Shown: in pieces, positions 36,662 through 43,866 of the stretch
Numbering within the stretch: position 1 is the stretch's first letter
Layout: each line of letters starts with the position of its first letter
Source of the DNA: Piedraia hortae CBS 480.64
Taxonomy: Eukaryota
Direction: 5' to 3'
Assembly: GCA_010093745.1 (NCBI GenBank)
Contig: MU005970.1
Location: 267,549-316,530 of the forward strand
DNA: 48,982 nt
Notes under the pieces: model-generated
Database searches by the model: none
The model's input: the letters and a program-made list of their open reading frames with translations, nothing else
What the model was told of the DNA's origin: nothing
Position numbers and translations under genes: made by a program

Positions 36662-38545
36662 ATGCGTAAGTTCTATGCCAGCGCGACGACTGTAGCAATG
36701 GCAGCTGACAGACATGGCGTGTAGATTCCATCAAAAAGGCCGCGCGACGCGAGGCCTGGTTCGATAGCGACCCGGATAACAAGACATACAACCCGTTTGG
36801 CCGTATTGGCAATCGAGGACCGCGCCGTCCGTCAGACATCGAACAGGGCGCTTTGCAGCACCGCCGTACCGATGGCGACGTGCAGTCGCCCTCTCAAGAG
36901 CAGAGGCTACTAGATGGCCGGGCGGACGGTATTCAAAAGTCAGGCACATTCCCCACCGGGCCTGGCGACCATTTGCCCAACCATCGCCAGCAGGAATTAG
37001 CCGAGGGAATCAGCCCCTATGCGCCGCTGAATGGCGGCCAGGTTAACGGCTCCGATGGCGAAAAGACGGCGACCCAGCCAGAGCCCGCTCCGCCTGCTGC
37101 GGGCGAAACCCATCAGCCGGTCGGGGCCGAAGGTGCACGGAAGCGCAAATCGCGCAAGTTCCTTCCATGGAAGAAGGACGAGACCGGCGCAGATATGGAG
37201 CGCACGAATACGAGTTTGTCGCAGAAGAAGAAGTTCCCCAAGTTGTCCATAATGAGTCAGATCAGGGCCGTCTTCGGATCTTGGATCAACATCATGCTGG
37301 TTTTCGTACCGGTCGGGATTGCGCTCGAGTACGCTCACGTCAACAAGATTCTCGTCTTCATCATGAACTTCCTGGCCATTATTCCGCTGGCAGCCATGCT
37401 TTCGTACGCCACCGAGGAGCTGGCCATGTACATTGGCGAGACGCTCGGCGGTCTGCTCAACGCCACGTTCGGCAACGCCGTCGAGCTGATTGTCAGTATC
37501 ATCGCTCTGACGCAGGGAAAGATTCTCATCGTGCAAACGTCGCTCATCGGGAGCATGTTGTCCAATCTGCTGCTTGTGCTCGGCATGTGCTTCTATTTTG
37601 GCGGAATGAGGCGCGAGGAACAGTACTTCAACCTCACTGTAGCCCAGACGGCCTCGTCGCTGCTTTCCCTGGCTATTGGTTCACTCATCATCCCTACCGC
37701 GTTTGTGTCTTTTGCCAACGTCGACAAGGGGGCGACTCCGGCTTCGCGTGGCACTGCCGTCATGCTGCTGTTCGTGTACGGGGCATATCTCATTTTCCAG
37801 CTGCACACCCATGCCACCATGTACAATGAACCGTCGCGAAAATCGCCCAAGAAGCCATCGAACCGGAGGGGCGTTGGCGAGATGACAAGGAGCCTTGCTC
37901 ACATGGGAGCTGGCACCGGATCTGCCAAGGCCCACGAGGCCGAGAAGCAGGCCGAGAGGCCCAAGGAAGATGAGGCCGCGAATCAGGAAGACCAAGAAGA
38001 AGAGGAAACGCCGCAGTTGACGGTGCTGGGTGCCATTATCACTCTAGCCGGCTCGACGGTGCTTATTGCCCTGTGCGCCGAATACATGGTTAGCTCCATC
38101 AATGAAGTCGCCAAGAGCGTGTCGCCCGAGTTTATTGGCCTGATCTTGCTGCCGATTGTCGGTAACGCGGCTGAGCACGCGACTGCTGTGACGGTTGCCA
38201 TCAAGGACAAGATGGATCTCGCTATTGGAGTCGCCGTCGGCTCGTCTCTGCAGATTGCGCTGCTGGTGCTACCGTTTATGGTGTGTCTGAACTGGTGGGG
38301 AGTGGGCAGCCCGGCTGTCTTGTCCCTCAGCTTCGACGGCTTCCAGGTCTGTGTCCTCTTCATTGCCGTCATCCTCGTCAACTATGTTATCAATGTAAGT
38401 CAACTTCAACCCATTCACTTCTCAGCTGACCACAAAACAGGATGGCAAATCACACTGGCTCGAGGGCATCATGCTGACCATTACGTACATGATCATCGCC
38501 GTGTCTGCTTGGTTCTACCCTGCGAGTGGCGATGTTGCTGGTTAG
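36662..38545 (+). CDS. VCX1: Vacuolar Ca2+/H+ exchanger (CAX family), 3 exons
   Basis: GNAVE and GNAAEH alpha repeats with an acidic loop. First coding exon is ATGC; introns 36666-36724 and 38395-38440; the last exon supplies DGKSHWLEG. Confidence 0.92.
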
Positions 38546-38726
38546 TTCAGCTTGTCGCTTCGGGAGTTCCGGCGTTTTCTTTCTGCCTTCTCACTCAGCG
38601 GCGAGCAAATGTCTTTAATAGTGTTCTGTATCAATTCGAAAGTGCTTTGAACATTGCCATAGTACGCGAATTGCAGAAAAGTGAGGAGCAGCTTGCGTGG
38701 CCCAGCTGAGTCAGAAGGCTTACAAA

Positions 38727-41517
38727 CTATCCACTTTGGGTATTCTTGGCGCAGATCATGCCTTCTAGCCCCGGTTCCGCGTCTACCAGGATCTGGCACT
38801 CGTTGACGAAATCTTCGGTGCCGTGGCCATGTTCTCTCGCAACTTTCGATAGTGCCCTCACTACTCCTCTCAATTCTTCGCTAGACCCACGTGTTTCATC
38901 ACTGAGCCAGGCAAGACAGGCACTCTTCATGATCTCCGCACGGTAGCGATAAACCCTTGGCGCACAAGTCTGAATCACTACGATCATGATTCTTGCCAAA
39001 ATGTTCGTTTGATGTGAAGACTTGCTCCGTCCCAGCTCAGTCACGAGTATTGGAATAATGAACTTCATATGTTTCACCGTTTCAATCCCCATGTCTTGCA
39101 TTATCGGAATCAACCATTGAAGCAATTCCGCTGCTAAATGGGGATCTGATTCGGCAAAGCCGTGAGCGGAGAGGATCTTCCGCATCAGCGTATCGAGGAA
39201 GGCGAGCTTGTTATTCTGCTTGTTTGCAAGGACGATCAAGGCAGGGATCGTGTGAGAGATGAGCTCTATTGACTCCTCGGGGGACGTTGAAGGAGGCATA
39301 TAATGCATGCTTGCTAATAGAGTAGAAGACAATATCTCATCGAGACCTGTGCGATGGAGCAAGTCTGCAGAGGCAAGTTCAAAGAGGCGCTTGCTCGAGT
39401 TTGCGCCGATGCATTTGTATCGAATCTCCCAATCATCGAGTAGCGTGAGGAGCGGAGGTATGACGAGATGCCAGTATTGCCTTAAAACAGAGGGGGTCAA
39501 AGAATGCACTGTCCACTGAAGGAGTTCGAGGGCATATGCATTCTTTTTCTCCTTCCAAGCTACGTCTTGAAGGACCATAGGGCTTGGATTTAGGGGCAAA
39601 GTCTCGCCCATTACTTTACGTCCTTGTTCAGTGATGTTGGTTGGCCTGGCCTTGAAAAGAGGACGAATCGTGAGCTCGAGAAAATGAACGGCAAGGTCAT
39701 GCGACAGCTCACCTCTGTGGTCTTTGACGGCCTCTATCACCTTCGCCGGATCTGTTTCTTCTGCATGGCGCAACTGGTATGCAGCAGCAACGTCCAATGC
39801 ATCCTTTAGCCATGGTCCAGGCATGGTGTTCAGTGCTTTTGTCAAACTAGTGCCATCGACGATCAGCTTCATTGCATAGGCGTCGAGAATCGAGAGCGAC
39901 TTGAGGCGTTCAAGAAGAGCAGAGTACCTGCGCTCAGTTGCTCGAAAGGGTTAATAACATCAACGCTGCGATACAAGGAAACATACCTTCGATCGAGCCC
40001 GGATTATCAGCCACCTCGACCAAAAAGCTGTACAAGACTTGACTGCGCCAGGAAGGTCCCAATTTGCGGATGAACATTCCAAGAATATCACGGGCGCCGG
40101 CATTTTTGCCATCAGGCCCGCGCTTTTGCTGATTGAATTTCTCAACCACACTGGCTATTTCACCCTGGTTGGCCAGGGAAGTCTCAATAACGCTCGACAC
40201 TTTGTTTGGAGCCTTGAAACCGCTTCTTGCCACTCGCACAGCCAAAGGGATAGCCTTTTGCTTCTTGTCCTTTGGCGGTGGAGGTGCGTCACGATAGGGT
40301 ACAATGGCCGCCAAAAGCCATGCCATATAGCGTTCTTGTCCATTCCTCACGAGGGTTTGCATGGACAGGGATTCGGCATCGATTTCATCTCGCAAAGTGC
40401 CAATGACAGACTGCCAATCCCCGATGTCTGGCTTGTAGTCGTCTACAGCATCTACTTCAGGATCACAAAATACTGTATCATACAAGCCACATGAGAATAT
40501 CAGACGCAATGCTTCGTGCGGGTCAGGACCACGGAGAGCCTTTTCGAGTTCCACGCCGATCCGCTCCCGGCTTATCTTTCGTTTCAGAGCATCTTTGATC
40601 GATTGATCGCTCATGGCCTCAAGTGCCTCGTCGTCTATGGTATAGCCCAGACGACTAGCAAAGCGAATTAGCCTGAGGACACGCAAAGGATCATCCTTAA
40701 ATGTTTGAAAAGGTTCAAGAGGAGTTCGTATTATCTTCTTGTGCATGTCTTGACGCCCTTTACCCGTAAAGTCTTCGACTTCTTGCGAGTGGAGGTTGTA
40801 AAACATGGCATTGACTGTAGCATCTCTGCGCAATGCGTCTTCCAACGGCGTGCCAACCTCCATCTGTGGGTTACGACTGTCCTCACTGTAAGTTTCCTTG
40901 CGCAGATTCACCAGATCAAGGTCGAATCCGAGCAGCTTTGTTGTTACCGTCTCCAAGTGCTTTGACTTTTCCGGGTTGGCATCAATCTTGTGAATGCCAC
41001 CGAGAGATGACGGTGTCTTTGGGTCTTGGTCAGATAAGCCATATTTGGCGAGATTGCCGGGGATCTCGAGGTAATCCTTCAGCTGCAAGGCAAATTGATA
41101 CCCGGTCATTATGTTGATGGCCACATCTATGTCGTTACTTTGCACGCCAAGCAACTTGTCTCGGACCCATCCCCCTGTGAAGCGGAGGACGATGCGGTCT
41201 GAGTTTGGTGTCTTCGAATTTTGATCAATGTGTTCAGCAGCGTCGAGAAGCAAAGCACGGAGAGAAGACTCGGCGGGAGTGAGATGGATGGGTTTGAAGC
41301 CATCATCACCGTCAATTTCTTGAATCAAACCTGATGTCATTGTGGGCGTGGCAGTGCTCAGTTTACGGCGTTTGGGTGGGTGTGATGTTGACCGTGTCAA
41401 CATCACTGGCCGCTGAACAGCAGCAACACGGCAAGAGACAACGGAAACACGAGCACGTCTACCTGCAGCCAGACCGGAGCCGAACCTCTGCGCTGTTGTC
41501 ACGCCCGCGCGTCTCAT
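38727..41517 (-). CDS. CCA1: CCA tRNA nucleotidyltransferase with fused C-terminal Tti2-like domain
   Basis: GGWVRDKLL, DIDVA, RRDATVNA and DDPLRVLR class II CCA motifs. Intron 39941-39986 links in frame to ORF 38727..39872, which starts with the CCA tail (VDGTSL...PGPW...YQL) and continues into a Tti2-like region. Confidence 0.88.
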
Positions 41518-41607
41518 TGCAGAAGTGCGGCCGAGATTCAGCCGACGTCACGGCAACAACTGGCTACAGGCCATGAGCCGGAAGCGGACAGCAGCCTCTC
41601 CTAGACG

Positions 41608-43866
41608 ATGTCAGATGAGCCGCAAGACTCGGAGGCAGACCCGGTGCTCAAGACACCGCGCTCGAGACCGGGCCATTCATATCGCCATTCAAGCCCCTCG
41701 TTCAGACACATCACCAGCCCGGCTTACCATGGCCGTCTCTCTCTGGGCGGCACCGCGACTCCCCCAGCCAGAACCCGCGGCAGTGTATCATCTGGTCGGA
41801 GATCGTCATCCCCCTCTCATCCCGCAGGGGTCCACAGCGAGGCGCGGGCACTTATCGTACGAGCTTTTGCGCCCCACGTGGCCGTTCTGCCATCTCCAGA
41901 CACTGAAGAGCTGTTGAGACAAAAGGGGATTGGCGGTGGCCTGCTGCAGCTGCTCCGTCCGTTTGGGGAACATGTACAAGGCAAAGTCACGATCCGGGAC
42001 AGCAGCGGGGTTAACAAGTCCTGGGACGACTTTGGCATACGATTCGTAGGGATCAGGGATTATCTTGACACCGAGACGGCGGAAAACGGACGGCGGCCGT
42101 CGGTGTTCGACTACAAGTCACCGCGCCTTCGGACCGGAGGATATATTCCCCATCTTGAGCAGCTGGTGGAGCGACACTTGACTTTTGTCGAAGAGCAATC
42201 TAGCCCCTTTGACGCAGACTATGAATTCTCTCGGCCACAAAACCCCGGGGCTACGTCCCCTTTTTACTTGCTACACCTACGTCGTCTCATGTCCGGCTTA
42301 CCGCTGGTGCCTTCAGAAACATTTTCCCATCCCGTTGCATTGGTGATCACTGTCTCTTCCCGCTGTGCTGCGCCAATCGAGGAGCTCAGTAGGCTCTATT
42401 TATCTTCTAATCAGGCCGAGGATCGGCTACCGCCCTGGGTGCACAATGAATTTCTACGATACTATGTTTTAGTCCATGACGAAAGTCGCGACGACATTGC
42501 CCAAACCATGGCGCTGTTCGATCAAATGAAGAGACATTTCGGCCTACATTGCCACCTGCTTCGGCTGATCAGTACACAGTGTGGCTGCTCAGATGAAGGT
42601 TCCATAAAACTGCCCATGTGCGAGTGGATGTCTGCATCCGAGGAGCTGGCGGAGATTGTAAGGTGCGAAGCCGACGAGGAGAATGGGCCACAGGTGCCGT
42701 ATATCCTTGAGTCAGATGCCGCTGCGCTACGAGCTTTTGTACGGGAAATGGTTACCCAATCCATAGTGCCGTCAATGGAGCGTGCGTCAGCCACTTGGAA
42801 CGACCAAGTTGCATCTCGCAGGCGAGGCTTGAGCGGAAGATTTGTCTCGCTTTCCAAACGCTTTACCACCTTTGGTGGCAAATCCGCCGTTGGTCCGGCC
42901 TTGGGAGCAGGAGGGGGCAATTATGACAGTGTACAAGGCGTATACCGTCCAGACGCTGCCGAAGCCGTAATGCGTAAGCTGGCCGACTATGCTGTTATGC
43001 TTAGAGATTACCGCCTCGCACACGGCACGTATAAGATACTCTGTCAAGATTTCAAGCACGACAGGGCCTGGAAATATTACGCCGCCGCCAGCGAGATGAC
43101 AGCGGTGACGGCTCTTCTGTCCCTTGGCCACCTCGGTGCCAAAGCCCAGGCAGAGATGGTGGACCAGCAGCTGGAGTCTGCTTATTACTCGTACACCACT
43201 CGCGTGCAGTCGCCATTCTACGCATTACGCACTATCATAGTGGGCGCAGAACTTCTCAAAGTGTGCGGTGGGCATGCCTTGGATGACGCAGCAAATTGGT
43301 TCAATCGCCTCATTAATGACAACGTCGTAGGGCCAGTGGGGCGTGCTTTGATAATGGAGCGCATTGCTAGCTGCTGCGAAGAGAAGAAACGTTCCCCAAG
43401 AAGAAGAAAAGCAGCCTTTTGGCATCTCCTAGCGGCAGACACATGGCTGAGCATGGATAAAGCAAGGCAAGGACAGAGAAATCTCTCCGAAGCGGTGCGA
43501 CTATATGGAGTCAATGACGGTCGTCTTACTTTTGATGGCATGTTGAGTTTCATAAAATCTTTACAGCACGCAGTTGAAGAAGGTACCCGACACTTTGATG
43601 AGCCGCCAGAGGTCGAAAGCGAAGAAGTTCATCTACAGAATGAGCCCCTTTCTTCCCCACATGGCTCTCCTGTTGTTCATCGCAAGAGTCTTAGCATCTC
43701 CACGGCCGCGTCTAAAAATGTCTTTGACGACCCTCTTGGTGCTGTGCCAAGCGCATACGACAAACAAGAAAGGCTCTTGGACGATCCCCTGAGTCCGCAC
43801 ACGACGATTACGACACCCGCTGCTGTACCTGAACGGAAGGACCCCAGAGAAGATGGGTTTGAGTAG
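41608..43866 (+). CDS. TRS85: TRAPPIII-specific subunit Trs85 / TRAPPC8
   Basis: LLRPFG, ETFSHPVA, LRYYVLVHD, MKRHFGLHCHLL, MRKLADYA and RKAAFW motifs; intronless. Confidence 0.92.
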   Translation: MSDEPQDSEADPVLKTPRSRPGHSYRHSSPSFRHITSPAYHGRLSLGGTATPPARTRGSVSSGRRSSSPSHPAGVHSEARALIVRAFAPHVAVLPSPDTEELLRQKGIGGGLLQLLRPFGEHVQGKVTIRDSSGVNKSWDDFGIRFVGIRDYLDTETAENGRRPSVFDYKSPRLRTGGYIPHLEQLVERHLTFVEEQSSPFDADYEFSRPQNPGATSPFYLLHLRRLMSGLPLVPSETFSHPVALVITVSSRCAAPIEELSRLYLSSNQAEDRLPPWVHNEFLRYYVLVHDESRDDIAQTMALFDQMKRHFGLHCHLLRLISTQCGCSDEGSIKLPMCEWMSASEELAEIVRCEADEENGPQVPYILESDAAALRAFVREMVTQSIVPSMERASATWNDQVASRRRGLSGRFVSLSKRFTTFGGKSAVGPALGAGGGNYDSVQGVYRPDAAEAVMRKLADYAVMLRDYRLAHGTYKILCQDFKHDRAWKYYAAASEMTAVTALLSLGHLGAKAQAEMVDQQLESAYYSYTTRVQSPFYALRTIIVGAELLKVCGGHALDDAANWFNRLINDNVVGPVGRALIMERIASCCEEKKRSPRRRKAAFWHLLAADTWLSMDKARQGQRNLSEAVRLYGVNDGRLTFDGMLSFIKSLQHAVEEGTRHFDEPPEVESEEVHLQNEPLSSPHGSPVVHRKSLSISTAASKNVFDDPLGAVPSAYDKQERLLDDPLSPHTTITTPAAVPERKDPREDGFE

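Follow-up and report, generated by a model that had tools for sequence, protein, structure and literature searches.

The 48,982-nucleotide (nt) stretch of the Piedraia hortae CBS 480.64 genome analyzed here (contig MU005970.1, positions 267,549 to 316,530; designated the window) carries on its minus strand, at 38727..41517, the gene for the CCA-adding enzyme CCA1 joined in frame to sequence encoding Tti2, a subunit of the Tel2-Tti1-Tti2 (TTT) complex. The evidence makes it probable that this is one bifunctional locus, at which CCA1 alone and a CCA1-Tti2 fusion are alternatives switched by a frame-shifting coding intron ('exitron') at the boundary between the two parts. That the junction splice exists and is conserved we regard as highly probable. 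A preliminary description of the same DNA had put forward a single fused polypeptide and, as a fallback, a bifunctional locus resolved by alternative transcripts; it is the fallback that the evidence favored. A conserved coding intron that shifts the frame at the joint, and with it a two-product locus rather than a simple fusion, appears to be new, and a title-level literature search found no publication describing either a CCA1-Tti2 fusion or the junction intron.

The junction splice was found in RNA of P. hortae itself. A single contig (11,408 nt) of one public run (X1) covered positions 38300..41900 with 0 differing letters and skipped two pieces, of 46 nt and 62 nt. Because both are GT..AG pieces on the minus strand, the run was taken to be RNA-derived; that the contig spans several genes is explained by the tight packing of the neighboring genes. 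Removal of the 46-nt piece, intron 1, gave the join ...GSIE-ATERRY..., which fits the sequence of homologues across that point. An acceptor at 39928 and a donor at 40033 had also been considered for this intron and were dropped, as the homologues and the RNA fix it at 39986..39941. The 62-nt skip, 39712..39651 (CT..AC on the plus strand), sits exactly at the domain joint, where ELSHDLAVHFLELTIRPLFK is lost from between ...KDHR-G and ARP..., and the skipped piece resembles an ordinary fungal intron (GTGAGC...CTCAC...TCCTCTTTTCAAG). Splicing it shifts the frame, and CCA1 then ends seven codons later (...KDHRGQANQHH-stop), about where stand-alone CCA enzymes end. When retained, the 62 nt encode G-ELSHDLAVHFLELTIRPLFK, the conserved helix that comes first in the Tti2 part, and retention is therefore required to translate a complete Tti2 domain. 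The claim in the preliminary description that the junction lies within one exon does not hold against this contig. The same description had held that raw reads with a stop or frameshift at the junction, or transcripts always ending or starting between the two domains, would speak against a fusion; the genomic frame proved open, yet the RNA-derived contig shifts the frame there and ends CCA1 at the joint, which in part bears out this objection. The features of the locus are arranged as follows.

39934..41547, minus strand: stop-to-stop open reading frame (ORF) of 537 codons, CCA1 body
38727..39950, minus strand: stop-to-stop ORF of 407 codons, CCA1 tail and then Tti2, stop-free
39987..41517, minus strand: CCA1 exon 1, from the first in-frame ATG (41517)
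about 40726..41187, minus strand: PolyA_pol domain, converted from residues 121-274 of protein P0002
about 40450..40647, minus strand: PolyA_pol_RNAbd domain, converted from residues 301-366 of P0002
39941..39986, minus strand: intron 1, 46 nt, GTATGT...TTAAC...GAG, skipped by the RNA-derived contig
39713..39940, minus strand: exon 2, CCA1 C-terminal tail (…YSALLERLKSLSILDAYAMKLIVDG…PGPWLKDALDVAAAYQLRH…AVKDHR plus the first base of the Gly codon)
39651..39712, minus strand: junction intron ('exitron'), 62 nt, GTGAGC...CTCAC...pyrimidine run...AAG, skipped by the RNA-derived contig
39628..39650, minus strand: tail of the spliced form, a hybrid Gly codon plus QANQHH, with stop TGA at 39630..39628
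38727..39650, minus strand: rest of the Tti2 coding part, with stop TAG at 38729..38727, read only if the junction intron is retained
about 39039..39734, minus strand: Pfam Tti2 match, beginning within exon 2 and the exitron

Conservation of the junction was assessed in a metagenome scan that yielded 80 loci (86 of 127 pattern matches encoded a relative). The junction pattern matched 78 of these loci as well as the window, and the 79 matches collapsed to 60 distinct junction DNA segments; the loci are related by descent, and counts over the 60 segments are not independent events. All 80 loci and the window were open across the joint, with G/S-E-L at fixed spacing ahead of FL.LT, and the in-frame continuity for which the preliminary description had proposed an architecture survey is thus conserved. 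The two loci outside the pattern, L060 (a Thr-to-Ser variant) and L079 (at a contig end), carry the junction motif by eye. Where 1500 nt or more of upstream flank was available (54 loci), the CCA1 body was immediately upstream and in the same orientation in every case.

The splice signals at the joint were conserved at positions where the protein would tolerate change. The donor GTGAGCT, which falls at synonymous sites, was invariant in 60/60 distinct segments: the first junction codon was GGT in 43/60 and AGT in 17/60, the junction Glu was GAG and the junction Leu was CTN in every segment. In the same ORFs GGT makes up 23% of Gly codons, AGT 12% of Ser, GAG 54% of Glu and CTN 80% of Leu. The acceptor AG was found at +65 in 54/60 segments, at +62 in 2/60 and at +71 in 4/60. 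All of these intron lengths are 2 mod 3, so that splicing always shifts the frame. Gly or Ser (GGT/AGT) at the donor and Lys or Gln (AAG/CAG) at the acceptor are what is expected if GT and AG, and not the residues, are conserved. Among the 54 segments with AG at +65, other third codon positions within the intron were about 41-69% conserved; because neighboring synonymous sites are near-random, the conservation of the splice signals is specific. The exception within these segments was the 'LT' codon pair, whose third positions were 98% (Leu) and 89% (Thr) conserved, giving CTTAC, a putative branch site, 23 nt before the AG. Conservation of the predicted splice signals beyond coding need shows selection for splicing. 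The Leu of this pair (L-T codons at +39..+44) was CTT in 98% of the 54 segments, though the synonymous CTA would give CTAAC, closer to the branch-site consensus. The sub-optimal CTTAC may be kept to allow partial retention.

Both outcomes at the joint leave a coherent reading frame. A stop followed within 1-29 codons of the predicted splice in every locus with enough sequence, and the retained frame stayed open for 328-385 further codons wherever the contig was long enough. The motif RGEL..L..HFL.LTIRPLF.K was invariant in three annotated fusions whose Tti2 parts are only 37-39% identical to that of the window. To judge from these predicted proteins, the retained frame is under protein-level selection.

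Two further observations on the relatives concern the extent of these frames. In L042, L043, L047, L048, L051, L053, L055-L059, L077 and L078, the shifted frame after the splice was open for 23-29 codons and ended in a conserved basic motif (...PPRKVRRG-stop or ...RPAKVRK[C/R]-stop), vs only 7 residues in the spliced tail of P. hortae. In this group some 25 predicted codons seem to be under conservation in two frames, and a tail resembling a nuclear localization signal may be added there to the CCA1-only form. In L012, L024, L028 and L075 (genomic contigs of 21-160 kb), the open frame upstream of the junction spanned 642-657 codons, which means that intron 1 is missing from these genomes and that their frame of roughly 1000 codons is broken only by the spliced exitron.

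Both domain assignments made in the preliminary description were right. The upstream ORF matched PF01743 (PolyA_pol; E 1.2e-22, 81 bits against a cut-off of 23, residues 121-274 of P0002) and PF12627 (PolyA_pol_RNAbd; E 4.5e-9, 36.4 bits against a cut-off of 22, residues 301-366). Class II nucleotidyltransferases have the catalytic motif GG..RD ... DxD, and a predicted catalytic carboxylate motif, 'RFTGGWVRDKLLGVQSNDIDVAIN', was read in the CCA1 body and was invariant in three fused proteins. The CCA1 tail (LIVDGTSLTKALNTMPGPWLKDALDVAAAYQLRH) and all Tti2 motifs quoted in the preliminary description lie inside ORF 38727..39950, the tail running in frame and without a stop into Tti2, as had been described; the start given there, 39872, is the in-frame ATG of 'MKLIVDG', and the ATG at 41517 is likewise present. 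A solved fungal CCA enzyme of 487 residues, 9ns4_A, aligned over its residues 416-473 with residues 8-65 of P0001, from the tail (E 9.7e-4). A match of the tail to tRNA_NucTran2_2 (PF13735) was weak (16.1 bits, under the curated cut-off of 27). The CCA1 part of the window has, in common with the separate CCA1/TRNT1 of yeasts and animals, the class II nucleotidyltransferase head and RNA-binding domains, and its tail resembles that of solved fungal CCA enzymes.

The Tti2 family PF10521 matched residues 73-304 of the downstream ORF over profile positions 29-270 of 279 (E 1.3e-48, 166.4 bits against a cut-off of 25.2). When a three-sequence profile of this part was compared with PDB sequences, all three matches were TTI2 (9wjy_B, 1.3e-4; 7f4u_C, 1.4e-4; 7ole_J, 7.2e-4). 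The nearest ESM Atlas clusters were also Tti2 families (scores 0.93-0.95), which adds nothing to the Pfam result. The Tti2 part is related by sequence to the TTI2 of the solved Tel2-Tti1-Tti2 complexes (7f4u, 7ole, 9wjy) but lacks its own N-terminal region of about 190 residues, the CCA1 tail directly preceding the conserved helix. It aligned to human TTI2 only from residue 199 or 218 onward, and stand-alone fungal homologues (P0034, P0037, P0044 and others) matched it only from near their residue 190. A helix homologous to the one encoded at the junction is shared by the stand-alone proteins P0034, P0037, P0044 and P0052 (...LLRERIKPAFAK...TQQGRK). The predicted structure of the Tti2 part was all-helical, with a mean predicted local distance difference test (pLDDT) score of 83.1, and residues 81-98, encoded by the junction intron, formed one confident helix in the model (block means of about 86-91).

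An exhaustive search returned 1269 relatives. Its 150 best representatives, together with P0004 and P0005, were sorted by crude patterns; among these 152, a CCA tail, the junction motif or both were present in 50 and absent from 102. In a tree of 115 Tti2 domains, built by a quick method with the junction helix excluded and labeled by crude patterns on gene models, the CCA-tail-type and stand-alone labels required 5 changes, and 0/500 shuffles gave so low a figure; the labels were clustered but did not form one clade. P. hortae (P0003) sat on a long branch (1.67). A word-indexed search for a stand-alone Tti2 of similar length gave none at E<=0.001 among 4500 candidates, which reflects the sensitivity limit of that search and is no evidence of absence.

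Fused gene models proved to be widespread in public records. The fused reading of the window is 100% identical to P0003, an 855-amino-acid (aa) NCBI/UniProt protein of P. hortae CBS 480.64 with three Pfam domains. P. hortae belongs to the Capnodiales, an order of the Dothideomycetes. Among the proteins listed in a search with the C-terminal half of CCA1, PF01743 and PF10521 occurred together in 25/31, the other six being CCA1-only or truncated. Named fused relatives were Dothideomycetes, comprising Vermiconidia, Septoria and Rachicladosporium (Capnodiales-type) and, from the Pleosporales, Alternaria, Bipolaris, Pyrenophora, Ascochyta, Corynespora and others. Fused models from Hortaea werneckii (907 aa) and Neohortaea acidophila (991 aa) were 37% identical to the window over the second frame. 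An annotated fusion is therefore neither new nor peculiar to P. hortae, and the premise of the preliminary description that CCA1 and TTI2 are separate genes fails for Dothideomycetes. These annotated PolyA_pol plus Tti2 proteins represent the same locus and architecture as the window; they are automatic models that read through the junction, and no name seen among them mentions a junction intron or a CCA1-only form.

Other records end where the splice would end them. The CCA1-only proteins P0158 (Ascochyta lentis), P0161, P0172 and P0175 stop exactly at the predicted spliced junction. For A. lentis, the same gene is recorded both as a 905-aa fused protein (...ESD-SELPQRLASHFLKLTIPPFF...) and as a 552-aa CCA1-only protein (...ESDN-stop), the latter diverging from the former at the predicted donor. 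Coniothyrium glycines (551 aa) and the Joint Genome Institute (JGI) clusters P0172 (545 aa) and P0175 (630 aa) end alike. Each of the two JGI clusters has five member sequences, with longest contigs of about 3.0 kb. P0175 was 98.8-99.8% identical to loci L044-L046, skipped their 47-nt intron 1, and stopped at the exitron donor, its last residue being the predicted hybrid codon. The opposite choice was seen in P0179, a fused protein of 908 aa (longest contig 3165 nt) that was 99% identical to L063 and skipped a 49-nt intron 1 but kept the exitron. Another JGI protein, P0174, from a 117-kb contig, read straight through intron 1, which indicates that the JGI proteins are probably uninterrupted ORFs of their contigs. 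The claim of one constitutive polypeptide was not borne out by these data, since the assembled P. hortae transcript encodes CCA1 alone and CCA1-only proteins elsewhere end at the same junction.

One protein, P0081 (1236 aa), departs from this pattern. It consists of CCA1 followed by a full-length Tti2 with an N-terminal region of the stand-alone type, and has K-D-E-L instead of G/S-E-L at the corresponding point; it is possibly an intermediate, an independent arrangement, or a merged gene model.

These results are best accommodated by one minus-strand transcription unit with two coding capacities and an exitron at the CCA1/Tti2 boundary. In most molecules the exitron would be spliced, giving CCA1 alone and leaving the Tti2 sequence in the 3' untranslated region (UTR). 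In a fraction it would be retained, and the ribosome would read from CCA1 into Tti2 to yield a fusion of about 100 kDa; this figure, given in the preliminary description, is the predicted size of the read-through product. Both forms would thus arise from one pre-mRNA in P. hortae, and the fusion would supply Tti2 function, acting as the cell's Tti2 in the Tel2-Tti1-Tti2 complex. From the first in-frame ATG (41517) the predicted products are 593 aa for CCA1 alone and 914 aa for the read-through fusion; from the ATG at 41340, the start of the annotated 855-aa model, they are 534 aa and 855 aa. A further-reaching proposal is possible but tentative, namely that throughout the Dothideomycetes the sole cellular Tti2 would be the C-terminal extension of CCA1, made only from transcripts that retain a deliberately sub-optimal exitron of 62-71 nt, with the splicing ratio setting the supply of the TTT complex relative to CCA1.

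Several observations weigh against the two-product reading. P. hortae itself yielded the spliced form only, in assembled contigs of one run; such contigs drop rare variants and show no isoform ratios, transcript ends or strand, and the absence of a retained contig is no evidence. Translation of the retained form as a fusion is predicted from the reading frame. The proteins P0172, P0175 and P0179 probably come from cDNA-like contigs of about 3 kb covering both coding parts, an origin that we infer from the missing intron 1 and the small contigs, and the spliced-type (P0172, P0175) and retained-type (P0179) proteins come from different organisms. With the Tti2 structural model, Foldseek returned nothing at E<=0.001, and VIA-align returned ARM/HEAT solenoids (best Z 18.3) with no TTI2 among the 50 matches listed. 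Finally, a separate TTI2 transcript may start inside exon 2; an in-frame Met lies upstream of the donor in 58/60 distinct segments, mostly 23-38 codons upstream and in six 2-4 codons upstream; in the window the in-frame ATGs of exon 2 are at 39872 and 39824.

This last point belongs to the rival explanation that survives best, although we judge it unlikely. It supposes two overlapping genes, in which CCA1 mRNA is always spliced at the junction and Tti2 is made from its own shorter transcript, driven by an internal promoter, starting at a Met within the CCA1 tail and leaving the intron unspliced. Many database models of about 380-450 aa do begin inside the CCA1 tail (P0012, 'MKDALDVVMAWQL...'; P0021 and P0028, 'MAWQL...'), but these short models may be gene-caller choices only. 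The two widely conserved Mets are themselves residues of the CCA1 tail, are replaced by Leu and Ala in P. hortae, and are present also in P0081, which lacks the G/S-E-L junction motif. An internal TTI2 mRNA would moreover still hold both splice sites, so that retention would still need regulation, and P0179, on a contig of 3165 nt, is one full-length fused ORF that lacks intron 1. Re-initiation after the CCA1 stop, at the first Met past the splice (ATG 39611 in the window), was rejected as a general source of Tti2: the position of this Met is unconserved (3-296 codons downstream of the acceptor, median 40, and in many loci beyond the conserved W-K/R), and re-initiation there would also remove the conserved Tti2 helix.

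A constitutive fusion, in which the 62-nt splice is minor or aberrant and CCA1 activity resides in the fusion, is quite improbable. It would account for the continuous frame in the window and all 80 relatives and for the fused models in 25/31 listed relatives, but the assembler kept the spliced form in P. hortae RNA, the invariant GTGAGCT (60/60) with an AG always 2 mod 3 downstream shows selection for splicing, and four other clusters contain CCA1-only proteins that terminate at the splice junction. Most improbable of all is that the Tti2 part is a decaying, untranslated relic in the CCA1 3' UTR and its open frame an annotation artefact, for although the RNA of P. hortae yielded nothing but the spliced, CCA1-only form, every complete relative preserves an open frame of 328-385 codons, many alignment columns are invariant at 37-39% identity to the window (three sequences), the Pfam match reaches E 1.3e-48 and the predicted fold is confident (mean pLDDT 83).

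Three in-frame CCA1 ATGs, at 41517, 41403 and 41340, precede the conserved body. The longest N-terminus (41340..41517, minus strand) is rich in Arg and Ser (MRRAGVTTAQRFGSGLAAGRRARVS...) and continues into PPKRRKL. Yeast CCA1 makes its mitochondrial and nucleo-cytosolic forms from alternative starts, of which the three P. hortae ATGs are reminiscent; three starts and the exitron together could give up to six products from the locus. A plus-strand frame matching Na_Ca_ex (PF01699) terminates at 38709, and only 17 nt separate it from the Tti2 stop at 38727; with so small a gap between the convergent frames the 3' UTRs of both genes must overlap. On the other side, 87 nt separate the CCA1 ATG at 41517 from the first ATG of a TRAPP Trs85 gene (PF12739, E 1e-131), at 41605.

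The arrangement can be set beside several known systems. In yeasts and animals, CCA1 (TRNT1) and TTI2 are separate genes, in yeast both essential, and they serve unrelated housekeeping functions; in the window both occupy one frame. Exitrons are alternatively spliced introns inside protein-coding exons of plants and animals, and were reportedly described by Marquez et al. in 2015. Like these, the junction intron is a GT..AG intron wholly within conserved coding sequence whose retention gives a longer protein. It differs in that its length is always 2 mod 3, in that splicing acts as a domain-boundary terminator between two unrelated essential functions, and in its conservation throughout the 60 distinct junctions. 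In fungi, too, alternative splicing can yield two proteins from a single gene, as at SKI7/HBS1, and peroxisomal isoforms of glycolytic enzymes arise by alternative splicing or read-through. There too one locus gives two C-terminally different proteins chosen near the 3' end, but those systems add a targeting signal or swap related domains, whereas the locus described here adds a whole unrelated co-chaperone subunit.

If the Dothideomycetes do express Tti2 only by retaining an intron of the CCA1 message, public annotations of the locus are each half right, as about 900 aa fused or about 550 aa CCA1-only, and two isoforms would be needed. The locus would be a clean natural example of an exitron switching between a single enzyme and a two-function fusion, and it would offer a simple genetic handle, in that a synonymous GGT-to-GGC change would block the splice and leave the fusion protein unchanged, and precise deletion of the intron would force the CCA1-only form. 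It would likewise provide a handle on what Tti2 dosage, and the absence of the Tti2 N-terminal region, mean for the Tel2-Tti1-Tti2 complex. For the Dothideomycetes as a whole, the locus would represent a physical and regulatory link, kept class-wide, from tRNA 3'-end metabolism to the biogenesis of the phosphatidylinositol 3-kinase-related kinases TOR, ATR and ATM.

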